This document shows, one piece after another, positions 2,307 through 14,064 of a DNA stretch of 29,110 bases. The notes beneath the pieces are model-generated. The model was not told the origin of the DNA, did not search any database, and worked only from the letters and a program-made list of their open reading frames with translations. Source of the stretch: Deltaproteobacteria bacterium (GTDB taxonomy: Bacteria; Myxococcota_A; UBA796; UBA9615). A program made the translations under genes and the position numbers. The stretch spans positions 1-29,110 of the forward strand of contig JAJDAI010000831.1 in the NCBI GenBank assembly GCA_029261955.1, read 5' to 3'. How positions within the stretch are numbered: the stretch's first letter is position 1; each line of letters opens with the position of its first letter.

Positions 2307-2345
2307 TCGATCAATCGACAACTTTGTCCGGTAACACCCCGTAAT
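2307..2345 (+). promoter_or_regulatory. Possible promoter/operator upstream of radical SAM gene 1
   Basis: AT-richer patch in a 116-bp gap; short palindromes TCGAT-CA-ATCGA (2307-2318) and GACAA-CT-TTGTC (2317-2328); AAC-N17-CGTA (2320-2343) resembles ECF-sigma promoter spacing. Confidence 0.2.
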
Positions 2346-2388
2346 GCCGATGGTCGCCTCGCGCAGGGCTTCCTACCCTTCGCGCGTT

Positions 2389-3687
2389 ATGCACATCCAC
2401 TTCGTGTACCCCAGCTGGAAGCGCCCGAGCGAGAGCCACCCCGAGCTCGCGACGGTCAACGCCCACCCCTACATCGGCACGCCGTCCATGTCCGTGGCCG
2501 CGCTCGCCGCGAACACGCCGCCGGGCTGGACCTACTCGTTCCACGACGACCGCGTCGAGCGCATCGAGCCGGGCCCGGGGCCCGACCTCGTGGCCATGCC
2601 CATCTTCACGCCGGCTGCGGACCGCGCCATCGAGCTGGCAGACGGCTACCGCGCCGCGGGCGTGCCGGTCGTCGCGGGCGGCATCTTCACCTCGCTCATG
2701 CCCCACATCATCGCGCCTCACGTGGATGCGCTCTGCATCGGCGAGGGCGAAGGCGTCTGGCCGGTGATGCTGAACGACTTCGCGAACGGTTGCCTGAAGC
2801 CGGTCTACGAGGCGACCGAGCTCTGGGACCTGGCGAAGGCTCCGATCCCGAAGTACGAGCTCTACCTGGACTGGGTCGACGCGGTGCGCGACTCGGGCCT
2901 GGCGATCAACCCCGCCGTCGACTTCCCGCTCCAGCTGAGCCGCGGCTGCCCCATGGGCTGCTCGCACTGCGTCGTGCCCCACTACATGGGCCCGAAGCTG
3001 CGGCTGACGCCGCCGGAGCACATCCGGGCCTGCTTCGAGAAATTCGCGAGCATGGGCGGCCGCCGCGGCGCCACGCTGACCGAGGACACGACGATCCTGC
3101 CGGCCCGCGCCGTGCAGCAGCACCTCGTGGACGTGGCGAAGGCCTGCGAGGACATCGAGACCGAGATCGCCTACATCGGCTCGGGCCCCGAGTTCATCCA
3201 CATGGCGCCGCAGTCCTTTTGGGACTCCATGAGCTCCCTGAACGTGCACATGGTCTACCTGATGTTCGGTTTCGGGCACACGTCGCGCGACTCGACGAGC
3301 ATGAACGCCACCCCGAAGGCCATCGCCCACGCCGTCGAGACCATCAAGATGATCTCGGACCACGGCATGGAGGTGTACGGCTCCTTCTCCATCGGCCACG
3401 ACACCGAGGACGAGTCGGTCGCCGACCGGGTCCTGGAGATCTGCCACAAGGGCGAAGTCGAGGTCGCCGAGTTCGCGGTCGCGACGCCCTACCCCGGCAC
3501 GCGCGCCTGGAAGAAGCTGAGCAAGGAAGGCCGGATGCTCGACCGGCCCTTCGGCGACTTCAACGACGCCAACGTCGTGTTCCAGCCGGCCAACATGACG
3601 CCGGACGCGCTGCAGCAGACCTACCTGAACCTGTGGAAGGACTTCCACGCGGATCGGCCTACGTCGAAGTGGCCGGTGCAGATCTGA
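2389..3687 (+). CDS. Cobalamin-binding (class B-like) radical SAM protein 1
   Basis: N-terminal B12-binding fold (HFVYP..., VVAGGIFTSLMP, LCIGEGE); LSRGCPMGCSHC CxxxCxxC at 2947-2970; YGSFSIGHDTE and ATPYPGT motifs. Start placed at ATG 2389 (track start 2344). Confidence 0.9.
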   Translation: MHIHFVYPSWKRPSESHPELATVNAHPYIGTPSMSVAALAANTPPGWTYSFHDDRVERIEPGPGPDLVAMPIFTPAADRAIELADGYRAAGVPVVAGGIFTSLMPHIIAPHVDALCIGEGEGVWPVMLNDFANGCLKPVYEATELWDLAKAPIPKYELYLDWVDAVRDSGLAINPAVDFPLQLSRGCPMGCSHCVVPHYMGPKLRLTPPEHIRACFEKFASMGGRRGATLTEDTTILPARAVQQHLVDVAKACEDIETEIAYIGSGPEFIHMAPQSFWDSMSSLNVHMVYLMFGFGHTSRDSTSMNATPKAIAHAVETIKMISDHGMEVYGSFSIGHDTEDESVADRVLEICHKGEVEVAEFAVATPYPGTRAWKKLSKEGRMLDRPFGDFNDANVVFQPANMTPDALQQTYLNLWKDFHADRPTSKWPVQI

Positions 3688-3697
3688 GGGACGCCTG

Positions 3698-3725
3698 AGC
3701 GGGGGCCGCTGGTGCGGTCCCCGTT
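3698..3725. terminator. GC-rich hairpin between convergent genes (possible terminator)
   Basis: GGGGGCCGC-TGGT-GCGGTCCCC (3701-3722, one G-U pair), extendable to 3698-3725; no clear U-tract. Confidence 0.35.
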
Positions 3726-3760
3726 GATGGCCTCGGCGGGGGATTCCCGGTGGCGGCCGC

Positions 3761-4471
3761 TCAGGGGGCCGGCGGCCCGAAGCGGAAGTCCGCCGACAGG
3801 CGGCAGTCCCGGGTCCTCGTCGGCAGCCCCTGGTGCAGGGTGTAGACCCCGAAGAGCACGACGTCCCCCGGTTCCAGATCGGCGGTCGCCCAGGAGCCCT
3901 CGGGCACCGGATCCACCCCCTCCTCCGAGCGACGAAGCCCCGAGTGCGGCAGCAGCCCGGCGCGGTGGGATCGGGGCAGGATGGCCAGCGGCCCGCGCTC
4001 CAGGGGGCAGCGCTCCAGCGGCATCCAGGCGGCGACGAGCGGGCTGTCCCCGTCGAAGTAGTGGCGGTCCTGGTGGGGCCGGGTTCGGGCGCCGGTTCCG
4101 CGCACCCGCACGATGTCGCCGCGTCCCATCGTCGGCTCGCCGCCGAGCAGCGCCCGCACGACCGCCTGGAGCGCCGGGTGCCGCCGCAGCGCGTCCATCG
4201 GGGGGCTCGGGTAGACCACGCGCTGGAGCTGGATGTAGTCGGGGTCGTCGTAGTCGGGCGTGGGGCGGGTGAGCCCCTGCTCGTCCAGGCAGCCCAGCTC
4301 GGTGAGGGTCGCACGCACCAGGCTGCAGAGCGCCGCCGTCCTCGCCGGCTGGATGAGGCCCGGCAGGAAGAGGTAGCCGTCCGAGTCGTAGCGCGCCGCG
4401 AGCCGAGCCGGCGCGCCGAGCAGCGCCGTGCTGTCGACGAAGGGGTGGAAGCCGGGCGAGCTCAGGCCCAT
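3761..4471 (-). CDS. Phytanoyl-CoA dioxygenase (PhyH) family Fe(II)/2-oxoglutarate dioxygenase 1
   Basis: DGYLFLPGLI, HQD facial-triad motif, AWMPL, ILPRSH, PGDVVLF..YTLH, RLSADFRF; start overlaps the methyltransferase 3' end by 10 bp. Confidence 0.88.
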   Translation of the reverse strand: MGLSSPGFHPFVDSTALLGAPARLAARYDSDGYLFLPGLIQPARTAALCSLVRATLTELGCLDEQGLTRPTPDYDDPDYIQLQRVVYPSPPMDALRRHPALQAVVRALLGGEPTMGRGDIVRVRGTGARTRPHQDRHYFDGDSPLVAAWMPLERCPLERGPLAILPRSHRAGLLPHSGLRRSEEGVDPVPEGSWATADLEPGDVVLFGVYTLHQGLPTRTRDCRLSADFRFGPPAP

Positions 4472-5226
4472 GCCGTCCACCCCCTCCACCGCTCCGTGCG
4501 CCAGGAGCCCGGGGCGCAGGATGCCGCGACCTCAGCGAGCAGGGCGCGCCGGCGGGGCTCGTCCAGATCGGGGCGCATGGCCTCGGCGACCGGGGGCAGC
4601 GCCAGCCAGGCCGTGTAGGACTCGAAGCTCCAGGTCGTCTGCACGCTCCAGGGCTCGGGCCGCAGACCCACCCCCCGCAGCTGCTCCTCCAAGCCGGCGG
4701 CGTCGGGCAGCGGATCCCCCGCTTGCGGAGCGGTCGGACGACCGGCGACGAAGCGCTGCGCAGGCTCGACGAGGTGGGGGTCCGGCCCCCCGCCCGGCGC
4801 GTCCGGCTCCCCCAGGTAGGCAGCGGGAATGGCGAAGACGAGCGCCCCGCCCTCGGCGAGGCGGGCTCGAAGCTGGTCCAGCGCCTGCTCCAGCGGACCC
4901 AAGAGCCACAGCGATGCGCCGCACACGATCCGGTCGAAGCGTGCTTCGGGCAGGGACGTCAGCCAGGACACCCGGGGGTCGTCCAGCTCGGCAGCCTGCC
5001 GCATGGCGGCGGCGGGCTCCACGCAGCACAGCTCCGCTTCAGCGGGCAGCCGGGCCAGCAAGGCCCGCGCCGTGCCGCCGGTGCCCGCGCCGACGTCGAG
5101 CACGCGGCGGCTGCCCGCCAGGTCGGCGTGCTCCGCCAGCGCCGCGTTCACGGCGTGGTAGCGGTCGAAGCGGGCCCCGAAGTCCTGCCAGGCCTGCACC
5201 GTCTCGGCTCGATCCCAGGCGCTCAC
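4462..5226 (-). CDS. Class I SAM-dependent methyltransferase
   Basis: VLDVGAGTGG motif I, CVEPAAAMR, FDRIVC, LAEGGALVF; GTG start overlaps the radical SAM 2 stop (GTGA, 5223-5226). Confidence 0.88.
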   Translation of the reverse strand: MSAWDRAETVQAWQDFGARFDRYHAVNAALAEHADLAGSRRVLDVGAGTGGTARALLARLPAEAELCCVEPAAAMRQAAELDDPRVSWLTSLPEARFDRIVCGASLWLLGPLEQALDQLRARLAEGGALVFAIPAAYLGEPDAPGGGPDPHLVEPAQRFVAGRPTAPQAGDPLPDAAGLEEQLRGVGLRPEPWSVQTTWSFESYTAWLALPPVAEAMRPDLDEPRRRALLAEVAASCAPGSWRTERWRGWTAWA

Positions 5227-6635
5227 GCGGTCGCTGCCGGGGCGGAGGAGGGCTCCGGCGCGAAGAGCGGATCGCGCAGCAGACCCATGCGGGCGAGGTT
5301 GTGCTCCGCCTTGAAGACGAGGCAGCGCCCGATGGCCGCGCGCGTCTCCTCGTCGTAGCCAAAGAAGTCCAGGCCGAGGTTCGCGTCGTCGACGTAGTGG
5401 CGACGAAAGGCCTCGGGCTCGGCGATCGGCGGCGCCTCGACGTAGTGGCTGTAGGCCTCGTCCAGCCACCAGTCGGTGAAGCCGAAGCGCTCGTGGTGCT
5501 CCTCGTAGAGCGGCGTGCCCGGGAAGGGCACCGCGACACCGAGGGTGCTGAAGGTGTCCACCAGCGGCGCGATCCGCTGCATGAAGGCCAAGGTGTTCGC
5601 CAGCTCGGCCGGGCCCTCCTGCGGAAAGCCGAGCATGAAGTTCGCGGCCGTCTTCAGCCCCGCGTCCCGCGCCATGCGCAGCGCCGCCTCGACCTGGGCC
5701 GTGCTCACGCCCTTCTTGATGAGGCGGAGGATCCGGTCGTCGCCGCTCTCCACCCCGAAGTTCACGTGCACCAGCCCCGCCCGCTTCATCGTCGCCAGCA
5801 GCTCGGGGCTCACCATGGAGGCGCGGGTGATCGCGCTCCAGCGGGGGCGGAACTCCAGCCGTTCAATCCGCGCGCAGAGCGCCTCAAGCCGCTTGCGGTG
5901 GGCCGTGAGCGCGTCGTCCCAGAAGGGGAAGAAGCGCGTGCCGAAGGCGTCGTGGTGGGCCTGGAGCTCGTCGGCGACGTTGTCGTCGGAGCGGTAGCGA
6001 AAGCCCCGGCCGGTCACGTAGTTCGCACAGAAGGTGCACTTCGCCGGGCAGCCACGGCTCGTCAGCAGCCCGCCGGGCACCATCTGCCGGCCGCTCGGCT
6101 CGTACCAGGCGGGGTCGAAGAGGTGCTGGGCACGCTGGGGGAAGGCCAGGGCATCCAGGTCCGCGATGAAGCCGGCCGGCGCGGTGTGCACGGGGCCCGA
6201 GGGGGACGGGAGCACCAGCCCGGGCACCTCGCCCAGGTCGCGCCCGGTGCGGAGCGCCTCGACGAGCTGGACGAGGCTGTGCTCCGCTTCGCCGACGACG
6301 GCCACGTCGAAGCCCTCCCGCAGCGTCTCCTCGGGCCGGACCGTGGTGTGGGCGCCGCCAGCCACCAGCAGGGGCCCCGTGCCGACGAGCCGCCGGACGA
6401 GGCGGTAGGCGTGCCACACCCAGCGCGTGAAGAGCCCCAGCCCGACGACCTGCGGCTGGAAGCGCTCGATGCGCGCGAGGAGCTGGTCCTCGTCTTCATC
6501 GAAGTGGCGGGCGGCGGCGTCGATGACCTCGACCTCGCAACCCGCAGCCAGCAGCGCGGCGGCGACGTACTGCTGGCCCAGCAAGGGCGCCCCAAGCCGT
6601 TCGGGCGACGGGGGATTCAGCAGCAGGACGCGCAT
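5223..6635 (-). CDS. Cobalamin-binding (class B-like) radical SAM protein 2
   Basis: MRVLLLNPP, VAGGAHTT, VAVVGEAE; TSRGCPAKCTFC; PFWDDAL, NFGVESG, NFMLGFPQE, VPFPGTPLY. TTG at 6644 is an alternative start. Confidence 0.92.
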   Translation of the reverse strand: MRVLLLNPPSPERLGAPLLGQQYVAAALLAAGCEVEVIDAAARHFDEDEDQLLARIERFQPQVVGLGLFTRWVWHAYRLVRRLVGTGPLLVAGGAHTTVRPEETLREGFDVAVVGEAEHSLVQLVEALRTGRDLGEVPGLVLPSPSGPVHTAPAGFIADLDALAFPQRAQHLFDPAWYEPSGRQMVPGGLLTSRGCPAKCTFCANYVTGRGFRYRSDDNVADELQAHHDAFGTRFFPFWDDALTAHRKRLEALCARIERLEFRPRWSAITRASMVSPELLATMKRAGLVHVNFGVESGDDRILRLIKKGVSTAQVEAALRMARDAGLKTAANFMLGFPQEGPAELANTLAFMQRIAPLVDTFSTLGVAVPFPGTPLYEEHHERFGFTDWWLDEAYSHYVEAPPIAEPEAFRRHYVDDANLGLDFFGYDEETRAAIGRCLVFKAEHNLARMGLLRDPLFAPEPSSAPAATA

Positions 6636-6667
6636 CGCAGCCAAGGGCTCTCCGGCGGCTAGGGGGT

Positions 6668-6688
6668 CGTCACCGGGGTCCGGTGACG
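6668..6688 (-). terminator. Perfect inverted repeat just downstream of the Tat-protein stop (terminator or mRNA-stabilising stem)
   Basis: CGTCACCGG (6668-6676) / CCGGTGACG (6680-6688), 3-nt loop, 5 nt after the stop at 6694; no U-tract. Confidence 0.4.
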
Positions 6689-6693
6689 CACCA

Positions 6694-7527
6694 CTAGGGC
6701 AGCTCGGTGGGCTCCTGCGGGAGCGACTCGACGGCGCCGCCGCCGGGGATCCGCGTGATGCGCAGGAGGTGGCCGGGGGTCGAGATGTTGTCGCCAGCCA
6801 CGACGGGCCCGACGGGCACGTAGGGGGGCGCGAAGGTGGGCACGGGCCCGCCGCCGAGGATGCCCTCGACCATGGCGTCAGCGCTCCAGTCCTGGACCCT
6901 CTGGCCGACCCGCCAGGCGATGGCGTGCACGAGCGCGACGACCGGGTGTCCGCCCTTGATGGGCCCCTTGTCGAGCACGGACGAGGCCAGGGAGCCGGTC
7001 AGGCCGCTGGTGATCTTCGCGTAGCTGGCCGAGGACTCCGGCTGGAGCAGCACGGCGTCGCCTTCGGTGACGGGGGCCTCGGGCGCGGGCACGGCCGCGA
7101 AGTCGGGAAAGGCGTCCGAGGGGGGCAGGCTCCAGTCTGCAGCCCAGCCTTCCCAGGCTTCGGCCGCGGCCACCGCCAGCAGCGAGGCGCCGTCCTCTTC
7201 GACCCCGTCCGCGATCAGGCCGTCCTCGACGAGCAGCGCGACGTCCACCGGGCTGCTGAGGGAGCCGCCTTCGAGCGTGAGCGAGTTGATCTCCCCGTGG
7301 CCGTACTCGGCCTCGGAGAGCCAGGCGTTCCAGGCACCCGTGATCACGTCGGCCATGGCCTCGGCGTCCGCATCGAGCGCGGGGTTGCCGCGGTTCGGAG
7401 CTCCGTGGCCGTTGCCGCCTCGGGCTGCCGCGCCAGGCCGCGCGATGGCGGTGGCGGCGACGCCAGCGGAGAGGCCGAGGAGCACGTCGCGGCGGTTGGG
7501 GATTCGGTTGGGGTCGTCTTGGCTCAT
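6694..7527 (-). CDS. Hypothetical protein with twin-arginine (Tat) signal peptide
   Basis: NRRDVLLGLSAGVAATAIARPGAAA: RR, hydrophobic core, AxA site; GAGG 6 nt before ATG 7527 (alternative ATG 7533); acidic mature region with WxxW helices and C-terminal GGGPVPTFAPPYVPVGPVVAG. Confidence 0.8.
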   Translation of the reverse strand: MSQDDPNRIPNRRDVLLGLSAGVAATAIARPGAAARGGNGHGAPNRGNPALDADAEAMADVITGAWNAWLSEAEYGHGEINSLTLEGGSLSSPVDVALLVEDGLIADGVEEDGASLLAVAAAEAWEGWAADWSLPPSDAFPDFAAVPAPEAPVTEGDAVLLQPESSASYAKITSGLTGSLASSVLDKGPIKGGHPVVALVHAIAWRVGQRVQDWSADAMVEGILGGGPVPTFAPPYVPVGPVVAGDNISTPGHLLRITRIPGGGAVESLPQEPTELP

Positions 7528-7554
7528 GGTCATCCTCTTCTTGAGGATCGGACC

Positions 7555-8322
7555 TTAGACGACGACGGGGAAGCCTGTCCCCTTCAATCGACCGCCCTCG
7601 TCCAGGGGGAAGTGGACCCGCGAGGCGGGCGCGATCCGCTCGACATCGATGACGCACTCGGCGTCGAAGAGGTGAGCGACGACCGTCCTGCGGGCGCTCC
7701 CGCTTCGGTTCGGGGCGGAGCGGTGCCAGGTCCGCGGCGTGTGCACGCTGAGGTCCCCGGGCTGCAGGACCAGGGCCCCGCGCGAGGCATCCACCTGCGC
7801 GCGCTGCGCCGGGGCGAGGCCGGCGAGGCCGTCCTGGAGCATCGGCTCGCCGTGCAAGGAGTCGACCGGCTCGGGCCAGCGGTGGCTGCCGTCCAGCACC
7901 TCGAGGCCGCCTCGATCCAGGTCCTCGACCCCCAGGGCCAGGCGGACGGAGAGCACCCGGTCCGGCGCCAGGTAGCCCGTGTAGGAGGCGTCGCGATGCC
8001 AGGGCACCTCGCCCCCCATCCCCGCGGGCTTGCCGATGAGCGCGTCCTGCAGCAGGCGCACCTTGGGGGCCTCGAGCAGGGCCGAGGCGATGCGACCCAG
8101 CCGCCCGTCGAGCAGCCAGCGGCGCAGGTCGGCGTGGAGCCGAAAGGCCCCGGGGCGCTGGACGACAGGGGGCAAGCCGGTGGTGCCGATGCAGGCATCG
8201 AAGGCCGCACAGAGCCGGTCGACTTCGGGCTCTGGGACGACCTCTCGGAGCACCGCCCAGCCGTGCTCCAGCAGGTGGACCCGTGCCGCTGTGAGGGCCT
8301 CGTCGCTCGGTGCAGGGCTCAC
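7555..8322 (-). CDS. Phytanoyl-CoA dioxygenase (PhyH) family Fe(II)/2-oxoglutarate dioxygenase 2
   Basis: HGWAVLREVV, VPWHRD, LEVLDGSH, QPGDLSVH..RTWHRSAPNRS..ARR; GTG start overlaps the radical SAM 3 stop (GTGA, 8319-8322). Confidence 0.88.
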   Translation of the reverse strand: MSPAPSDEALTAARVHLLEHGWAVLREVVPEPEVDRLCAAFDACIGTTGLPPVVQRPGAFRLHADLRRWLLDGRLGRIASALLEAPKVRLLQDALIGKPAGMGGEVPWHRDASYTGYLAPDRVLSVRLALGVEDLDRGGLEVLDGSHRWPEPVDSLHGEPMLQDGLAGLAPAQRAQVDASRGALVLQPGDLSVHTPRTWHRSAPNRSGSARRTVVAHLFDAECVIDVERIAPASRVHFPLDEGGRLKGTGFPVVV

Positions 8323-9674
8323 GCCGGCTCGTCCGAGCCGTAGAACGCGGCGCTGAAGCGGCGCACCTCGGGCGACCAGCGCGCCGTCCAGCGGGCGTTC
8401 ACCCCCCGCTGCCACCGGTTGAAGCCGGCCAGCTCGGCCTCGCGCCCCACCCAGGCCTCGTGCGGGAGCATGGCCGTGGCCAGCTGGTGGTGGTCGCCGA
8501 CCTCGCGCCACCAGGTCGGGTGGTCGACGCGGGTGCCGAAGCGGCGGGCGTACTCGGGCAGGCGCCGGTAGGACTCGGTGCCCGGCAGCACGAAGAAGGT
8601 CTGAGCCGACAGCCAGCCGCTCGCCGGGCCGCCGCGCGGCATGAGGTCCTGCACGTAGGCGCGCGTCTCGGCCGCGGTCTCGGGCGTCTCGCCGGGGTAG
8701 TTGAAGAGCAGGTAGACGCCGTGGTGCAGGTCCTCTGCATCCGCGGCACGCAGCATCTCGGCGGACTTGCGCAGGTAGCGCGCGGGATCCGGGGCCTTCT
8801 CCATGAGGCCGGCCATGGTCTCGCTGCCGGTGTCGAGGCCGAAGTCGAGCTTGAAGTTGCAGCGCCGAAAGCGCGCCAGCAGCGCCGGCGTCATCAGGTC
8901 GGCCCTCGTCTCGGCCCAATACTGCACCGGCAAGCCCAGCTCCTCGAGGCCGGCGAGCAGCTCCTCCGTCCAGCTGCGGTGGGCCCCGAAGAGGGGGTCG
9001 GCGAAGGCGATGGAGCGCGGGCTGCGCGCCCGGTAGACGGTCTCGATGATCCGGAGCGCGTCCGCCACCGAGTAGCGCGAGGTCCTGCTGCCTCGCAGTG
9101 GCTCGATGCAGAAGCGGCAGCGGTAGGGGCAGCCGCGGCTCAGGGCGATCCAGACCGCGCCGCCGTGATCGCTGCGCCCGTAGTTGGGCCAGTCGATGTG
9201 GTCGTGTCCGCCCAGGGCCAGGGGGTTGCCGGCCAGGACGATCGTGCGAGGGGGGCGACGCGGCGGATCTGCGCACAGCGAGCGCAGGGGGTGCTCGCCG
9301 TCGCCGGTGACGACCCAGTCCGCCAGCCCCTCGAAGTCCGAGGGCATGCCGGTGGCGTGGTGCCCGCCCACCACGATGGGCAGCTCCGGCCGCACGCGGC
9401 GCAGGTGTTCGATGATCGCGACCGTGCCGAGGTAGTGCAGGCTCGTCCAGCAGGAGATGCCGACCAGCCGGGTGTCGTCCTGGAGCGCCTCGTCGAGCCG
9501 GGAGAGGGCCTCATCCAGGTCGCCGCCGCGGTCCAGCTCCAGCTGCGCCACACCGCAGAGGTCGCTGACGAAGCCCGCCAGGCTGTCCAGGTGCGGCTTG
9601 CCCGCCTCGCGGTTGGACCACCAGCCGTGGCCGTGCAGCACGGGCGGGGCGATGAGCAGGAGCTGGAATGTCAC
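8319..9674 (-). CDS. Cobalamin-binding (class B-like) radical SAM protein 3
   Basis: LLIAPP, VGISCWTS, IVVGGHHAT, VVTGDGE; LSRGCPYRCRFC; FADPLF, LFNYPGET, FVLPGT. Confidence 0.9.
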   Translation of the reverse strand: MTFQLLLIAPPVLHGHGWWSNREAGKPHLDSLAGFVSDLCGVAQLELDRGGDLDEALSRLDEALQDDTRLVGISCWTSLHYLGTVAIIEHLRRVRPELPIVVGGHHATGMPSDFEGLADWVVTGDGEHPLRSLCADPPRRPPRTIVLAGNPLALGGHDHIDWPNYGRSDHGGAVWIALSRGCPYRCRFCIEPLRGSRTSRYSVADALRIIETVYRARSPRSIAFADPLFGAHRSWTEELLAGLEELGLPVQYWAETRADLMTPALLARFRRCNFKLDFGLDTGSETMAGLMEKAPDPARYLRKSAEMLRAADAEDLHHGVYLLFNYPGETPETAAETRAYVQDLMPRGGPASGWLSAQTFFVLPGTESYRRLPEYARRFGTRVDHPTWWREVGDHHQLATAMLPHEAWVGREAELAGFNRWQRGVNARWTARWSPEVRRFSAAFYGSDEPA

Positions 9675-9683
9675 ACGGGGAGC

Positions 9684-10856
9684 CTACCCGCCCGCCCCGG
9701 GGGCCGGGTCGGAACGGGGGGGTTGGGCGGTCCCGTCAGGACTCGGGGGGCTGTCCTCCATCGGAGGCGAAACCCTGACCCCCATCCGCTGCAAATCCCC
9801 CAGGAGCCGCGCGGGCTCCACGGCCTGCGCCATCGTGCTCACGCCCAGGGGCCGGCTGCCATCCGCCCACTGCAGCAACCAGGCGGCCACGGGGATCGCG
9901 GTGAGGTCGTAGCCGTCTTCGTGGCCCAGCTGGAGGACCAGCTGCTCTCGCTCGCTCTGCACCTCCAGCCGCAGCAGCGTGCCGAAAGGCGGGCGCGACC
10001 CCCTCCGCAGACTCCAGCACAGCAGGCGGGCCAGGGGCCCTTCGAGCAGCCCGGGCAGCAGCTTCATCCCCACCAGGACCAGCGGGATGACCAGGTAGTC
10101 GGTGATGGGGTCGAAGCCGCCGACGTAGAAGCCGCAGGAGGTCAGCTGGGGGTACATCTGCGGCAGCGGCCGGAGCTCCTCGAGGAACATCGGCACACAC
10201 ACCTGCTCCCCCCAGGGCGGCCCGAAGTCGAAGCGCGGGCTGCCCCGACCGGTCCAGGACATCGATCGCCACGACCCCTCGACCAGGTGCTTCGAGTCGT
10301 AGTCGGCGAACTCCCGGACCATCTCGCGCGCCGTCTCGGACACGATCTCCAGCCCGCGCCAGTCGATCTGGATGACGCTGCTCACCTGCGCCCGGAAGGC
10401 GCCCGGCACGCGCTCGGCGCCGTAGCGGATCAGCGCCGCGGGAACACCCGGGTGGAAGCCCGCGTCGGTGATCGCGCAGAGATCCGCCGCCTCGAAGAGG
10501 TCCGAGGCAGCGAACAAGCGGGCGACCTTCTCCGCGGAGAGCTGGATGTCCAGGTAGTCGGTCCCGGTGGCCAGGCAGGCCTCGATCGCCACGTCCACAA
10601 ACTCCGAGGTGCTGGAGGCGGCGACCAGCAAGTCGACATCCCGGAGCGCTGCCTCCATCGATGCACGCGAGGAGGCGTCGACGGACAGGGGCGTGCAGCG
10701 CTCCCCGAGCTGCCCAGCCAGCGCCTCCAAGGGCGCCGAGCGGCGACCGGCGGCCACGACCCGAGCCTCAGGGACTTCGGCCAGGAGCAGTCGAGCGATG
10801 CGGGACCCCGTGTTTCCCGAGGCACCGAGGATCAAGACGGTCGGCGATCGGCTCAT
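9684..10856 (-). CDS. Saccharopine dehydrogenase-like NAD(P)-binding oxidoreductase
   Basis: VLILGASGNTG Rossmann motif, VVAAGRR, GTDYLDI, DAGFHPGV; GGAGG 5 nt before ATG 10856. Confidence 0.85.
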   Translation of the reverse strand: MSRSPTVLILGASGNTGSRIARLLLAEVPEARVVAAGRRSAPLEALAGQLGERCTPLSVDASSRASMEAALRDVDLLVAASSTSEFVDVAIEACLATGTDYLDIQLSAEKVARLFAASDLFEAADLCAITDAGFHPGVPAALIRYGAERVPGAFRAQVSSVIQIDWRGLEIVSETAREMVREFADYDSKHLVEGSWRSMSWTGRGSPRFDFGPPWGEQVCVPMFLEELRPLPQMYPQLTSCGFYVGGFDPITDYLVIPLVLVGMKLLPGLLEGPLARLLCWSLRRGSRPPFGTLLRLEVQSEREQLVLQLGHEDGYDLTAIPVAAWLLQWADGSRPLGVSTMAQAVEPARLLGDLQRMGVRVSPPMEDSPPSPDGTAQPPRSDPAPGAGG

Positions 10857-10909
10857 CGCGTCCTCCGACCCCCAGCCTACGGCGAGGTCGAATCCGGGAC
10901 ACCGCGTGA

Positions 10910-12451
10910 TCACCCCCTCGCGAGCGCCGCCCCCACGTGCAGCCCCATCGCGTAGATCGACACCTGGGGCGGCACGCCGATCGAGCTCGGGAAGAGCGAG
11001 CCATCGGCCACCCACAGCCCCTGGAGGTGGTGGTGCTTGCCATCCGAGCCGACCGGGGACTTCGCCGGATCGTCGCCCATCGGCACCGAGCCCATGGGGT
11101 GCACCGCCGTGAGGTCGGGGGTGTCGGCCGCGATCTCCGCCTGCAGCGCGTCCAGGTCGTCGTCGGCCCGAAGGACACGCAGCCCACCCGCGGGCACGAA
11201 GACCGACTCCGCGCCGGCCGCGAAGAGCAGCTTCGCGCAGGCGACGACCCCGAAGGCCACCTCGCGCCGATCCGCCTCGATGGGCTCGTAGTCGATGCGC
11301 AGCCCGAGGTCCCCGCGCGGGCGAACCCGCCCCATCGTCAGGTCGTGGACCATGGGCGTGAAGACAGCCAGGCGCTCGTAGGCGGACATGAGCCGGCGGT
11401 GCTCCGCGCCGAGCCCCGGCACCATCGTCGCGGTGCCCACGGGGTGCGCGAAGGCCGGCACGATCCAGGTGCGCGTGCCGATGGGCGGTTCGGCCCCCTC
11501 CTCGGCGTAGGCCCGCTCGAAGTCGAGGAACTCGGTGCACTCGACGGTCTGGGGGATGCCTTCCCAGGCGCGCACGGGCTCCGCGAACTCCCCCGCCGCG
11601 ACGGGCGCCGGGTGGATGCGCAGGGTTCGGCCGGTCTTGCCGCTCGGGTCGGGCACGTCGGAGCGAAGCAGGATCGCCGGCGTGCCCGTGGCCGAGGCGG
11701 AGACGCAGACCCTCGATGCAACGACCGAGAACTCACCGACCGGCCGCCGGTGCACGGGATCCAGCACGACCCCCTCGACCCCCGTCACCGCACCGCCGGC
11801 GTGCAGCACCCGCACCGCCTGGCAGCGGCTCAGCACCTGGCCCTTGGCGGCGATCAGGCGGGGGAGCAGCACCTTGTTGGCGTTGTTCTTCGCGTCGTAG
11901 GCGCAGCCGAGCAGGCAGAAGCCGCTGCCCAGGCAGCCGGTGCGGTTGTGCTTCAGCCCGCCGGCCTTCCAGCCCAGCTTCGCGGCCCCGGAAGCCAGCA
12001 GCTGGTTGTGCCGATTCCGCCGCGCGACCTCGACCTCGGACACCCCGAGCAGCGACTCCGCCGCCCGGTAGAGCTGCTCCCAGCGCGAAGGCGGCAGCTT
12101 CTCCATCCCGTGCAGCCGCGCCCACTCCCGGCGGATGGGCTCGGGGATGCGCGCGCAGAGGTTGATGTTGTGCACGGTGGACCCGCCCACCGCGCGTCCC
12201 TGGTGGATGCGCACCCGCCGGTCCGCGCTGGTCTGCCCGCCGTTCGCGGTCAACAGCTCGGGGAGCATCTGCTCCTCGCGCTGGGTCATGGCCGAGGGAG
12301 GTACAAACGCGCCGGACTCCAGGACCACGACGCTCAGCCCCGCCTCCGCGGCCGTGGTCGCTGCCGCCATGCCGCCGGCGCCCGAACCGATCACGCAGAC
12401 GTCGGCCTCCAGCTTCAGCGGCAACGAGAGAGTCGAGGCGTCGAAGATCAC
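10910..12451 (-). CDS. GMC-family FAD oxidoreductase
   Basis: VIGSGAGG, VLESG, QGRAVGGSTVHN, CLGSGFCLLGC..DAK, HPMG, VADGSLFPSS; GTG start overlaps the upstream stop (GTGA, 12448-12451); no signal peptide. Confidence 0.92.
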   Translation of the reverse strand: MIFDASTLSLPLKLEADVCVIGSGAGGMAAATTAAEAGLSVVVLESGAFVPPSAMTQREEQMLPELLTANGGQTSADRRVRIHQGRAVGGSTVHNINLCARIPEPIRREWARLHGMEKLPPSRWEQLYRAAESLLGVSEVEVARRNRHNQLLASGAAKLGWKAGGLKHNRTGCLGSGFCLLGCAYDAKNNANKVLLPRLIAAKGQVLSRCQAVRVLHAGGAVTGVEGVVLDPVHRRPVGEFSVVASRVCVSASATGTPAILLRSDVPDPSGKTGRTLRIHPAPVAAGEFAEPVRAWEGIPQTVECTEFLDFERAYAEEGAEPPIGTRTWIVPAFAHPVGTATMVPGLGAEHRRLMSAYERLAVFTPMVHDLTMGRVRPRGDLGLRIDYEPIEADRREVAFGVVACAKLLFAAGAESVFVPAGGLRVLRADDDLDALQAEIAADTPDLTAVHPMGSVPMGDDPAKSPVGSDGKHHHLQGLWVADGSLFPSSIGVPPQVSIYAMGLHVGAALARG

Positions 12452-14064
12452 CGCAGCGCCCCCCTCGGGTCCTGGCCAACCGGCGCCACGAGGGCGGCGT
12501 AGCGCCCCGGCGCCCCGGTCCCGCCCGGCGGCACCCACGGCCCGCGGTAGCCCAGCTCGCCCCAGGTCCGCGCGTCCTGGTACCAACCCAAGAGGCAGAG
12601 GTCCCGGACCCCGCGCGCCGCGTCCGCCATCAGCCCGCCGAACCACTCCAGGCGCTCGAGGAAGCGCCGACGCCCCGCAGGATCCAGCTGCGTGAGCCGC
12701 GAGAGGTGACCGTCCAGCGCGGTGCCCTGCTCGAGCAGCTCGAACATGCCGTGGACCTCGAGCAGCATCGGCGCGGGCATGCCGGCCAGGTAGCGGTCCA
12801 CGGCGGAGGCGAGCTCCTGCCCCGAGGGCCCATCGGCCGGCAAGGGCCCGGGCTCGTCGGGCACCACCGCCTCGGCCGCCGCGGCGATCGCCAGGGCTTC
12901 GTGCCGAGTCAGGACGAGCCCCTCCCAGTCCTCGAAGCCCCCATAACCGACGAGGTGCCGGTAGCCCGCGATCCCCACCGCCAGCGCCGCGCCGCCCACC
13001 AGGACCCGGCGACGGGACCAGCCGCGCCCCGAATCCAGACGCCGCAGCAGCCTCGGGGGCAACCGACCGCGCCACCCCGGCTCCACAGGCAGCTCGCCGC
13101 GGTGCGAGGTCAGCCAGTACAGGACGCGCTTGCCCTGCCAGGTCGGGGCCTCGGCCCGCATCGCGGCGAGGGCCTTGCCGCCGTAGATGGGCTCAGCGCG
13201 CAGGCCGGCCGAGGCGAGCCAGGCCACCGCGCCCGCCGACTCGGGGCTGATGTGCCCGTAGCCTGCCCCCACAAAACCCCGCACCGCCTGGAGGTCCGGC
13301 ATCGGCAGATCCGAGGGGACGGGCAACCCGCTCGACCGGAGAAAGGCCAGGACCTGGTCCCGGTGGTGCCGGAGCGCGCCGTTCGTCACGAAGACCCGCT
13401 CGACTGTCGCCACGGCACGCACGGGGATCGGCCGGCCCGCGAGCGCCAGGCCCAGCGCCGTGCCGACCGCCGTGCCGCCGGTGCCCCAGGGCACGAAGAC
13501 GACGTCAGGCTCGGGGATCTCACCGGCCTCGATCTGCGCGGCCAGCTCCAGCCCGCCCGACAGGCTGCCCACGACGCCCTCCGGCACGGTGCCGCCGGGC
13601 GGGATGGCCGGGATCGGCCCGTCGCGCTTCCCGAACAGGACCCGCGTGCAGCGAAAGGCCAGCTCCAGCCGGCTCCCGCAGAACAGGACGTCGGTGGGGC
13701 CCGAGGCGATGCAGGCGAGGTTCTCCAGGACCGGCTCAGAGCTCGGCTCCCAGAAGCAGTGCGCCTCCAGCCTCCGCCCCAGGCGCGCGGCCGCGAGCGT
13801 CATGGCCACCAGGTGCCCTGAGCCGATGGCCCCCACCGAAGCCCAGGTCTGCGCGGAGACGAAGGGCTCCTGCGCGAGCAGGAAGTCGAGCTTGCGGACC
13901 TTGTTCCCACCCTGGAGCGGCCCGATCTGGTCGTCCCGTTTGACGCCGAACCAGGAGAAGCCGAGCTCCGCGGCCTGCTCCGGCAGCTCGGTCACGGGCG
14001 TGGGGGCTTCGATCCACCCCAGGCGGGGCAGCACATCGAGCGTCGATTGAGTCCAGGGGGGCAC
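12448..14064 (-). CDS. Fusion: PLP-dependent ACC deaminase/D-cysteine desulfhydrase-family domain + gluconate 2-dehydrogenase subunit 3-like domain
   Basis: N-terminal ~330 aa: PTPV, VKRDD, GGNKVRKL (PLP Lys55), GTGGT, EPIYGGKA. C-terminal: SRRRVLVGGAALAVGIAG, AAAEAVVP, VDRYL, FLERL, LCLLGWYQDARTW..LGY.GP. One uninterrupted frame. Confidence 0.8.
   Translation of the reverse strand: MPPWTQSTLDVLPRLGWIEAPTPVTELPEQAAELGFSWFGVKRDDQIGPLQGGNKVRKLDFLLAQEPFVSAQTWASVGAIGSGHLVAMTLAAARLGRRLEAHCFWEPSSEPVLENLACIASGPTDVLFCGSRLELAFRCTRVLFGKRDGPIPAIPPGGTVPEGVVGSLSGGLELAAQIEAGEIPEPDVVFVPWGTGGTAVGTALGLALAGRPIPVRAVATVERVFVTNGALRHHRDQVLAFLRSSGLPVPSDLPMPDLQAVRGFVGAGYGHISPESAGAVAWLASAGLRAEPIYGGKALAAMRAEAPTWQGKRVLYWLTSHRGELPVEPGWRGRLPPRLLRRLDSGRGWSRRRVLVGGAALAVGIAGYRHLVGYGGFEDWEGLVLTRHEALAIAAAAEAVVPDEPGPLPADGPSGQELASAVDRYLAGMPAPMLLEVHGMFELLEQGTALDGHLSRLTQLDPAGRRRFLERLEWFGGLMADAARGVRDLCLLGWYQDARTWGELGYRGPWVPPGGTGAPGRYAALVAPVGQDPRGALR

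Follow-up and report, generated by a model that had tools for sequence, protein, structure and literature searches.

Related systems

Radical SAM enzymes that act on full-length proteins are known from several settings: the glutamine and arginine C-methyltransferases of MCR (TIGR04014/Mmp10), QhpD acting on QhpC, and the anaerobic sulfatase-maturating enzymes. Bufferins are RiPP-like precursors that bear a signal peptide and are exported after maturation; they are served by MNIO/DUF692 enzymes, carry Sec signals, and have much shorter precursors than the protein discussed here. The polytheonamide cluster poy, finally, encodes the precursor PoyA, the B12-radical SAM C-methyltransferases PoyB and PoyC, the SAM N-methyltransferase PoyE, and the Fe(II)/2OG hydroxylase PoyI (PMC9505594).

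The locus reported here resembles poy in that B12-radical SAM enzymes, a SAM methyltransferase and Fe/2OG hydroxylases are grouped around a gene with a ribosomal product (PMC9505594), in this case g6. The resemblance to proteusin/NHLP systems extends to short relatives of the g6 core that stand behind NHLP-clan-like double-glycine leaders, and to locus L071, where a motif-bearing precursor adjoins a TIGR03975 RiPP C-methyltransferase (604 bits; cut-off 282). The differences lie in the carrier, the core and the gene complement. In the window (the whole 29,110-nucleotide stretch of DNA that was analysed) the carrier is a folded helical protein of 279 residues with a Tat-like signal and no NHLP leader; the core is near-invariant across phyla, not variable; and a PoyD-type epimerase, a LanM-type dehydratase, a protease and a PCAT exporter are all absent. 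Pfam and NCBIfam detect no NHLP or Nif11 leader domain in the window g6, while for TIGR03975, with its cut-off of 281.85 bits, g7 reaches 102 bits and g4 and g10 are unmatched. With the enzymes of full-length proteins the proposed system would share a residue-specific radical SAM reaction on a protein that goes on to function as a protein; their substrates, however, are enzymes of known activity, whereas g6 has neither catalytic-type conserved residues nor a known fold, and the accompanying set of PhyH enzymes and methyltransferase is different. With bufferins it would share a ribosomal product that is tailored in the cytoplasm and has an export signal and a conserved core, but its enzymes (B12-radical SAM, PhyH, methyltransferase), its Tat-like signal and its longer precursor set it apart. 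The g6 family and its cassette are apparently undescribed in Pfam, NCBIfam and the literature searched, in which neither the motif strings nor the enzyme combination was found.

Gene organisation of the window

GC3 frame analysis and Pfam place nine codirectional genes (g1 to g9) on the minus strand, from 14064 to 3761, convergent with the plus-strand gene g10 (2344-3687). This bears out the earlier note, which had described nine coupled genes and a convergent B12-radical SAM gene with the same domains, and had seen no classical scaffold enzyme: genes for a PKS, NRPS, terpene synthase or phosphonate mutase are absent throughout the window. Its junction counts hold for the 10-bp overlap (g8/g9) and for the gaps of 9-58 bp (9, 21 and 58 bp), but the GTGA overlaps number four (g1/g2, g2/g3, g4/g5 and g7/g8), not three. 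The RND/TolC genes that it placed directly upstream are present as an AcrB fragment and an OEP/TolC-like gene, on the plus strand and upstream of g10, on the 3' side of the minus-strand operon and not on its upstream side. They were rejected as the product exporter, there being no recurrence with the cluster in G008, L070 or the related loci. Because g1-g9 are codirectional and separated by overlaps or short gaps only, they probably form a single transcript here, in which g1-g3 are probably co-transcribed with g4-g9; a promoter and terminator scan returned nothing and is uninformative at 72% GC, and a search for RNA runs that cover the stretch found none. That the arrangement goes beyond chance follows from the synteny conserved elsewhere.

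Apart from three genes with B12 domains the window encodes no radical SAM enzyme; the lineage has about 20-40 B12-radical SAM paralogues per genome. The CxxxCxxC motifs of the three are found at residues 182 (g4), 196 (g7) and 202 (g10). Both g4 and g7 lie above the two Pfam cut-offs, B12-binding and Radical_SAM; g10 is above the cut-off for Radical_SAM and just below that for B12-binding (28.4 against 32.1 bits). An NCBIfam equivalog cut-off is reached by none of the ten proteins, and assignment to a named pathway was rejected, with BchE, HpnJ, HpnR, PhpK, AprD4 and the MCR methylases all far under the NCBIfam threshold. Neither g7 nor g4 reaches the cut-off of an NCBIfam model for RiPP radical SAM enzymes, and g7 scores a sub-threshold 104 bits against TIGR04014. 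Tailoring of the thienamycin type (three B12-radical SAM enzymes and two 2OG oxygenases) and of the aminoglycoside type were rejected as well: the window lacks the carbapenem core gene of the former and the sugar or cyclitol genes of the latter.

The conserved g4-g9 unit

The conserved unit is g4-g9, not all ten genes. Its members encode B12-binding and Radical_SAM enzyme A (g4, 451 aa, 8319-9674, minus strand; Pfam), PhyH-type Fe(II)/2OG dioxygenase A (g5, 255 aa, 7555-8322, minus strand), the Tat protein g6, B12-binding and Radical_SAM enzyme B (g7, 470 aa, 5223-6635, minus strand; Pfam), a class I SAM methyltransferase (g8, 254 aa, 4462-5226, minus strand; Pfam) and PhyH-type Fe(II)/2OG dioxygenase B (g9, 236 aa, 3761-4471, minus strand). 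The two dioxygenases match PF05721 with 76 bits (g5) and 72 bits (g9) against a cut-off of 22 bits, and have their iron motifs (H109-R-D111 and H133-Q-D135, respectively) and the downstream His residues; these HxD motifs are not the HxA/G of halogenases. A recent duplication of g4-g5 into g7-g9, or the reverse, was rejected, as g4 and g7 are 28% identical and g5 and g9 barely similar.

The six genes occur together in three genomes, and in G008 and L070 their order is identical, headed by g4 orthologues of 68-69% identity. The inner cassette g6-g7-g8-g9 is far more widespread, with about 30 loci in about 8 phyla. According to the locus labels, a g6-like gene followed by g7, g8 and g9 is present in Burkholderiales, Gemmatimonadota, Armatimonadota, Acidobacteriota, Planctomycetota, Binatia, Eisenbacteria, and Myxococcota-type genomes. 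The g7 orthologues of these 30 loci are 57-81% identical, with a mean column identity of 71%. A g6-like gene lies directly upstream of g7 in 25 of the 29 loci that have upstream sequence, and two such genes stand in tandem ahead of g7 in L048. Downstream, g7 is followed by g8 in L070 and in 23 of the 30 loci, and by both g8 and g9 in 19 of the 30, several of the exceptions stopping at a contig end. No further gene family recurs around the cassette in the 30 loci. A conserved protease or dedicated exporter was likewise not found with it, and neither the cluster nor the 30 related loci contain an ABC/PCAT gene. A hairpin in the g6-g7 spacer of the window is real but weak (z = -2.0), and as a post-precursor element it was rejected, since it is not conserved and the spacers of other loci measure 2-24 bp.

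The g6 protein family and its core motif

The gene g6 (6694-7533, minus strand) encodes a 279-aa protein of an unannotated family, our candidate for the ribosomal substrate; a second ATG at 7527 could also serve as its start. The protein has no match in Pfam or NCBIfam, yet the family is large, with at least 665 clusters, every one of them named 'hypothetical'. A fold match was found neither in pdb nor in afdb_clusters or atlas, and an Atlas feature search returned only low-score Tat-signal rows. The structural model of g6 has a confident helical core and places the two most conserved motifs in low-confidence loops. Conserved loop 1 (residues 138-154; 7072-7122, minus strand) is a low-pLDDT loop and part of the predicted g7 interface. 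The core motif (residues 229-256; 6766-6849, minus strand), which reads G-P-V-P-T-F-A-P-P-Y-V-P-V-G-P-V-V...P-G-H-L, is the best-conserved stretch of the family. Since the invariant residues of the family are confined to G, P, F, W, A and V and its motifs lie in loops, g6 does not look like an enzyme.

A Tat-like signal covers residues 1-37 (7423-7533, minus strand; read from the translation). By inspection it consists of N-R-R-D-V-L-L, then G-L-S-A-G-V-A-A-T-A-I-A, and then A-A-A, so that a twin-arginine motif, a hydrophobic region and an AxA-type site are all present, export itself being predicted. The homologues of G008, L070, L094, L053, L064, L042 and L043 also have a Tat-like signal, whereas most family members begin with MP...AKxRF instead. 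TssC is found in none of the six Tat-type genomes, all of which bear the cassette, and in all eight MP-type genomes (seven with the cassette, and G676 without it). A rule by which MP-type proteins would be T6SS cargo and Tat-type genomes would lack a T6SS was nevertheless rejected: five enzyme-free MP-type Myxococcota genomes are also without TssC, and therefore the link between N-terminus and TssC is not general and is confounded by phylogeny.

The core motif itself is found in 358 representative clusters, mostly at the extreme C-terminus. In L092 and L093 it comes straight after an NHLP-clan-like leader with a terminal double glycine, although both leaders score below the cut-offs of the NHLP-clan models (27 against 40 bits for NF038399). 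Short proteins of L071, P0363 and P0380 carry two to three copies in tandem. The motif-bearing precursors of L071, L078, L092, L093 and L094 adjoin a radical SAM gene of the g4 type (54-56% identity). Homologues of g5 (36-39%) are paired with such g4-type enzymes beside leader-core precursors, and methyltransferase genes also lie beside short precursors with the motif. In G118 a g6-like gene is followed by a double-domain radical SAM gene that resembles the HxsC/SPASM-type peptide maturases but stays below their cut-offs.

Many family genes have no tailoring enzymes nearby. Seven loci sit between FtsK and RNase G, and at E<=1e-60 a g7- or g4-type radical SAM enzyme is missing from three of the five genomes with loci of this kind. 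Similarly, three of the four g6-first Acidobacteriota loci have no radical SAM gene within 1.5 kb. Members of the g7 family that do occur in the enzyme-free genomes (41-45% identity) have no motif carrier near them. The enzyme-free loci imply that the family can function unmodified and, possibly, that the motif serves an independent function.

Proposed role of g6

On balance g6 is probably the substrate: a protein-sized product of the ribosome, tailored first and exported by the Tat pathway afterwards. The Tat protein was one of three substrates suggested by the earlier note, and it is the one favoured by synteny, conservation, the leader-core motif and the complex model; the other two, a lipid and a primary metabolite, find no support. 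Beside the observed gene content, synteny and conservation pattern of g4-g9 and the observed reuse of the motif behind leaders, we infer which reactions take place, at which residues and in what order, how the product leaves the cell and what part it plays, as follows. Made on the ribosome, g6 would fold as a helical scaffold exposing two proline-rich loops, and the C-terminal core (…FAPPYVPVGPVV.GDNI..PG…, the C-terminal motif of the family) would enter the barrel of g7 together with the second g6 loop. Most likely g7 and g4 would C-methylate unactivated carbons of the core, both PhyH dioxygenases (g5, g9) would hydroxylate it, and g8 would add an O- or N-methyl group; class B radical SAM enzymes also perform cyclisation, ring contraction and dehydration. 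Tailoring would take place in the cytoplasm, where SAM, B12 and 2-oxoglutarate are present, and the finished, folded g6 would leave by the Tat pathway. In a broad sense the g4-g9 system may be a RiPP system, as supported by synteny, core reuse behind leaders and the complex model. Speaking against g6 as the substrate are the many family genes without tailoring enzymes, the use of small molecules by PhyH enzymes and by solved relatives of g5, g7 and g9, the scores of g7 and g4 below every RiPP radical SAM cut-off, and the lack of a protease or dedicated exporter conserved with the cassette.

The model of g7 with g6 has a median score of 0.66, the best of three controls scoring 0.00; when the tool was calibrated, 58 of 80 solved complexes attained this mark, as did 2 of 110 mismatched pairs, a calibration that is rough here since our own alignments were used. 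The modelled interface joins g6 residues 83-86, 138-154 and 230-246 to mostly invariant positions of g7 on either side of the cluster-binding motif, and so supports a predicted docking of both conserved g6 loops on g7. The model is equally compatible with g6 as a substrate and as a subunit. It would also be expected if g6 were a partner of g7 that is not modified, either a structural or regulatory subunit or a scaffold presenting the substrate, with the enzymes acting on another molecule. We consider such a role unlikely. In most loci a mere 2-24 bp separate g6 from g7, which suggests equimolar production or a stoichiometric complex, the complex model supports binding while being blind to the distinction, and the family also occurs without the enzymes; but the motif is found alone, in one to three copies behind double-glycine leader-like sequences, without the g6 scaffold and with the same enzyme types adjacent, and this scaffold-free reuse is hard to square with a subunit. 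Moreover, the loops are modelled at the conserved barrel face of g7, where a subunit would block the substrate. The tight spacing fits an enzyme-substrate pair equally well.

We regard it as quite improbable that the enzymes work on a small molecule or membrane lipid synthesised elsewhere, with g6 as an exported binding or carrier protein for the product. PhyH enzymes use small molecules, as do the solved proteins closest to g5, g7 and g9 (PtlH, SnoN, EvdO2, MysH, AprD4), BchE and HpnJ are among the best NCBIfam matches of g7 (far under their cut-offs), and the abundance of B12-radical SAM paralogues in the lineage points the same way. Against this, genes for scaffold formation or for a lipid pathway do not recur in the 30 cassette loci, spread over phyla as these are, and a carrier should conserve a pocket, whereas g6 conserves just G, P, A, V, F and W in loops; the motif, furthermore, exists as a leader-core peptide.

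With g6 as substrate, a wider and more tentative proposal is that of a phylum-spanning, apparently undescribed class of tailored ribosomal products. A single, near-invariant proline-rich core (…FAPPYVPVGPVV…) might be borne by different carriers: NHLP-like leaders, multi-core repeats, and a folded helical protein of about 280 residues. In the window the carrier might not be a leader that is later removed but the mature product itself: two B12-radical SAM/PhyH modules and a methyltransferase would tailor it in the cytoplasm, and it would be exported folded via Tat, as a protein-sized RiPP with a conserved extracytoplasmic function. The near-invariance of the core across about 8 phyla implies a conserved target or function. 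If the proposal is true, the 358 core clusters and the at least 665 carrier clusters represent a widespread, unnamed substrate family for radical SAM chemistry on peptides and proteins, in which leader peptides and a folded exported protein are alternative carriers of one conserved core, and the boundary between RiPP natural products and post-translational modification of proteins blurs. The orphan g4-type and g7-type B12-radical SAM subfamilies and their PhyH partners would then gain a testable substrate, a concrete substrate being the usual gap for this enzyme class.

Neighbouring genes

The earlier note took the ten genes as one set and held that scattered orthologues in related genomes would speak against it; scattering is found for g1, g2, g3 and g10, while g4-g9 keep their order elsewhere. 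A single ten-gene pathway, with an amino-acid-derived intermediate made or processed by the PLP enzyme, the GMC oxidase and the reductase and then decorated by the radical SAM and PhyH enzymes, is therefore very improbable and largely refuted by gene distribution: the probable shared transcript and the retention of g1-g2 in the same flank of a 93%-identical relative speak for it, but the g1-g2 pair travels in unrelated contexts, G008 and L070 have g4-g9 without g1-g3 or g10, g10 orthologues occur in g6-less genomes, and g3 is sporadic. To judge from these distributions, g1-g3 and g10 are neighbours and should be dispensable for the g4-g9 system. For annotation, 'scaffold-less' tailoring clusters are best divided into co-inherited parts before a product is sought.

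With the window proteins as queries, orthologues of g1, g3 and g10 are absent from G008, a genome that is 100% complete. The independent gene g10 (B12-binding radical SAM enzyme C; Pfam) has orthologues of 58-73% identity in G002, G003, G006, G015, G017, G019 and G020, all without g6 and with no cluster neighbours alongside. The gene g3 (9684-10913, minus strand) encodes a saccharopine-dehydrogenase-like NAD(P) oxidoreductase (Sacchrp_dh_NADP; Pfam), for which three weak matches (32-44% identity) were found among 300 other genomes of the phylum that were sampled. The pair g1-g2 is an independent, widespread two-gene module that is present in unrelated contexts without radical SAM, PhyH or g6 genes. 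The GMC flavoprotein oxidoreductase g2 (GMC_oxred_N/C; 10910-12451, minus strand; Pfam) is GTGA-coupled to g1, and its orthologues of 70-76% identity come after g1 homologues in L075 and L076. In g1 (12448-14064, minus strand) a PALP-domain PLP enzyme similar to ACC-deaminase/D-Cys-desulfhydrase is joined to a tail like subunit 3 of gluconate 2-dehydrogenase (Pfam, NCBIfam). The tail alone has no Pfam match in the window protein, and the GMC gene is always next, via a 4-bp overlap. The full-length g1 family (about 540 aa) comprises at least 435 clusters, and several full-length members match PF13618; the g1 tail carries an internal RRR.

Gene content and neighbours

Gene calls from third-position GC and frame analysis of the window (G+C ca. 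72%), with domains assigned by Pfam and the g1 subtype by NCBIfam, confirmed nine codirectional minus-strand genes and a convergent radical SAM gene, and each domain named in the earlier note was found again. On the minus strand lie g1 (12448-14064), a PALP protein (ACC-deaminase/D-cysteine-desulfhydrase-like) with a tail of ca. 200 aa; g2 (10910-12451), a GMC oxidoreductase; g3 (9684-10913), saccharopine-dehydrogenase-like; g4 (8319-9674), a B12-binding radical SAM protein; g5 (7555-8322), a PhyH protein; g6 (6694-7533), without family; g7 (5223-6635), B12-binding radical SAM; g8 (4462-5226), a class I methyltransferase; and g9 (3761-4471), PhyH; on the plus strand follows g10 (2344-3687), B12-binding radical SAM. 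All three radical SAM proteins (g4, g7, g10) carry CxxxCxxC and both PhyH proteins (g5, g9) HxD. The 10-bp overlap noted earlier is right and the gaps measure 9, 21 and 58 bp, but there are four GTGA overlaps, not three. Upstream of g10, likewise on the plus strand, come an AcrB fragment and a TolC-like gene; elsewhere the window encodes a MopE-repeat protein, an aldehyde dehydrogenase, a GST, a Ser/Thr kinase, HPPK, a sigma-54 activator and histidine kinases. The source MAG, from a biofilm metagenome, is fragmented (1279 contigs, 80% complete). A search of RNA runs found none that covers the locus.

The earlier proposal of one tailoring cluster is partly supported: a pathway of all ten genes is not borne out, as g4-g9 occur without g1, g3 and g10 in G008 (100% complete, of the same family but a different genus), and g1-g2 and g10 are found independently. 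In G008, g4-g5-g6 end one contig and g7-g8-g9 begin another, at 56-81% identity; the flanks are unrelated, with UDPGP and a 1328-aa secreted protein at one end and AraC and an SDR at the other, and searches with the window proteins found no g1, g3 or g10 orthologue there. The metagenomic contig L070 has g4-g5-g6-g7-g8-g9 and no other cluster gene (450/252/280/471/254/233 aa), flanked by unrelated genes. The g1 fusion belongs to a full-length family that is widespread (at least 435 clusters, PF13618 (Gluconate_2-dh3) being scored in some members' tails); its homologues elsewhere are always followed, at a 4-bp overlap, by a GMC gene, and their surroundings are unrelated (e.g. a 2-oxoacid dehydrogenase operon or an AMP-ligase). 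For g3, a sample of 300 further genomes of the phylum gave only three weak matches, while g10 has orthologues (58-73%) in seven relatives without g6, where no cluster genes were found alongside. Because of these distributions the window reads, on comparative sequence grounds, as a composite: a conserved six-gene core joined by a PLP/GMC pair and a radical SAM gene, both independent of it, and by a sporadic reductase, g1-g3 and g10 being neighbours, not members.

The g1 tail (12448-13050) contains an internal RRR motif, and the PLP/Gluconate_2-dh3-like fusion, GTGA-coupled to g2, is a widespread uncharacterised two-gene module. Locus L074 (GCA_024449685.1, JAANST012657689.1) is 90-98% identical and keeps the gene order of the window's right flank, from the histidine kinase through g1-g2; it stops at a contig break within g2.

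The inner cassette across phyla

With one genome per species scanned, g7 orthologues were found at 30 loci (53-81% identity) and at one more (43%), labelled Alcaligenaceae, Rubrivivax, Rhodocyclaceae, Burkholderiaceae, Gemmatimonadales, Fimbriimonas, Chthonomonadales, Bryobacteraceae, Solibacter, Terriglobia, Eisenbacteria, Planctomycetota, Binatia and Deltaproteobacteria. The protein is strongly conserved (mean column identity 71%). Both g8 and g9 follow it in 19 of the 30 loci, several exceptions reaching the contig end. Of the 29 loci having upstream sequence, 25 have a codirectional g6-like gene (by HMM) directly upstream, and two more have one nearby. Among these loci no recurring gene families were found beyond the cassette. 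Recent duplication of the g4/g7 and g5/g9 pairs is ruled out (g4 and g7 are 28% identical).

Genomes of this class, G000 (that of the window) to G040, each contain ca. 20-40 matches to the g7-type protein (33 in G000), an unusually large paralogue family. At locus L094 (3696-5052, minus strand) the match to the g7 orthologue is split between two reading frames (query residues 1-252 in one, 253-446 in the other), and the gene calls there include a 189-aa radical SAM fragment, which suggests a frameshift or assembly error. The window's 58-bp g6-g7 spacer (6636-6693, minus strand) has a perfect 8-bp inverted repeat, GTCACCGG-ACC-CCGGTGAC, directly past the g6 stop; the surrounding 76-nt stretch folds at -31 kcal/mol (z = -2.0), and the repeat is not conserved in the 2-24 bp spacers of other loci.

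The g6 family and its core motif

The 279-aa g6 protein has no match in Pfam or NCBIfam. Its family comprises at least 665 clusters at 90% identity, every one named 'hypothetical', and was found in 74 of the 401 genomes sampled from the phylum of the window and in 5 of 301 Acidobacteriota. An alignment of 21 members leaves only G, P, F, W, A and V invariant, with two near-invariant motifs: a loop, …PWYPAFAAFPGP.APP…, from which the window's copy diverges, and a C-terminal …GPVPTFAPPYVPVGPVVGGDNI..PGHL. The AlphaFold2 model has a confident helical core and β-hairpin, with low confidence exactly at the two motifs, and its fold matched nothing outside its own family in pdb, afdb_clusters and atlas. 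A twin-arginine signal starts the window's protein and a minority of others (in G008, L070, L094, L053, L064 and the Armatimonadota copies); most members start instead with a conserved MP…AK.RF… segment. Two Armatimonadota proteins (P0365 and P0383, loci L042 and L043; 600-640 aa) consist of a Tat signal, a g6 domain and a C-terminal extension of ca. 380 aa, one of them with a weak, sub-threshold Tox-PAAR-like match (E = 0.008).

A profile of the 35-residue motif alone, run against 1.84 billion proteins, found 358 representative clusters, nearly always with the motif at the extreme C-terminus, and several carriers are not g6-like at all. The motif is repeated in tandem in P0363 (three copies) and P0380 (two). 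At locus L071 a 158-aa two-copy protein has a PhyH and g4-type radical SAM pair on one side (the latter sharing 56% identity with g4); on the other come a TIGR03975 RiPP C-methyltransferase, which scores 604 bits where the cut-off is 282, and then an O-methyltransferase. L078 has the same layout. At L092 and L093 a helical leader of ca. 100 aa, ending in …VSGG, precedes the motif; its only matches are to NHLP-clan precursor models and fall short of the cut-offs (NF038399, E = 3e-6). These genes lie amid a g4-type radical SAM gene, a g5-type PhyH gene, a further B12-radical SAM gene and O-methyltransferases. At L094 a Tat-type g6-like gene occurs together with g7, g8, g9 and a g4-type radical SAM gene; in genome G118 the gene for a 700-aa double radical SAM protein, similar to HxsC/SPASM-type maturases, is overlapped at its start by a g6-like gene, and L048 has two tandem g6-like genes ahead of g7. 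Since one conserved core thus sits on interchangeable carriers, each among radical SAM, hydroxylase and methyltransferase genes, we read the motif as a core peptide, the sequence signature of a ribosomal substrate.

The short multi-core carriers P0363 and P0380 (L077, 1427-2005) start with a conserved '…LQRLAGNRAV…' segment that has no Pfam match and presumably resembles N-terminal segments of contractile-injection-system-associated proteins.

Proposed mechanism and alternatives

Gene content and co-inheritance are shown, as are the pattern of conservation and the reuse of the core; on this footing it is rather probable that g6 is the tailored and exported substrate of g4-g9; the central Tat protein, one of several substrates guessed at in the earlier note, is favoured as the best explanation. 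As class B radical SAM enzymes commonly do, g7 and g4 would C-methylate unactivated carbons of the core, with its invariant Val, Pro and Ala positions as candidates (the Tyr position tolerates Phe); g5 and g9 would hydroxylate and g8 methylate, all in the cytoplasm, and the folded product would then leave by Tat export.

Complex prediction for g7 with g6 residues 45-279 supports binding, with scores of 0.82, 0.65 and 0.66 against 0.00 in all three controls. In calibration 58 of 80 solved complexes reached this mark, as did 2 of 110 mismatched pairs; these figures are rough here since our own alignments were used. The confidently predicted interface involves the g6 hairpin tip (83-86) and conserved loops (138-154 and 230-246), and on g7 largely invariant residues, including those just before CxxxCxxC and the FFPFWDD segment. 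The model fits substrate and subunit alike. The 2-24 bp spacing of the g6 and g7 genes at other loci would suit a stable complex as well. The nearest solved relatives of the enzymes act on small molecules, and we count this as evidence against g6 as the substrate.

For g6 as a tailored substrate, the polytheonamide pathway offers a precedent, with its triad of B12-radical SAM enzyme, hydroxylase and methyltransferase acting on a ribosomal precursor (PMC9505594). The g4-g9 system would work like such proteusin-type RiPP pathways; however, the window's g6 has no NHLP leader, its cluster lacks a TIGR03975-level radical SAM protein, epimerase, protease and PCAT, and the defining tests of the proteusin family place it outside. 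The earlier note had not recognised the gene set as a described pathway; no description of the g6 system was found in Pfam, NCBIfam release 20 or the literature searched. In this system a conserved proline-rich core sits on a folded Tat-signal protein and would be served by two orphan B12-radical SAM/PhyH modules.

The g6 family away from the enzymes

In one Myxococcota family a g6-like gene sits between FtsK and RNase G, and three of five genomes with this context have no g7- or g4-type radical SAM protein (at E<=1e-60); likewise, three of four Acidobacteriota loci found through g6 have no radical SAM gene inside 1.5 kb. Because the family is often found without these enzymes, modification would be an add-on to a protein that functions in its own right. 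At locus L033, which has the FtsK/RNase G arrangement, the g6-like gene is followed (3522-4784, minus strand) by a conserved Cys-rich protein of ca. 420 aa, apparently a lipoprotein, without family match.

TssC (PF05943) is absent from all six genomes with a Tat-type g6 (G000, G008, G713-G716) and present in all eight with the MP-type N-terminus (G410-G412, G676, G717-G720). Five MP-type Myxococcota genomes also lack TssC, which rules out a general rule, and the pattern may reflect lineage only. One further locus hints at a possible role of enzyme-free members of the family as type VI secretion cargo. At the Acidobacteriota locus L100 (G676:C4:807000-826999), a g6-like gene (10399-11238, plus strand) is the final gene of a VgrG-headed operon, after a PG_binding_1 protein, several unknown proteins and an MT-domain protein, and a fused TssB/TssC sheath gene adjoins this operon.
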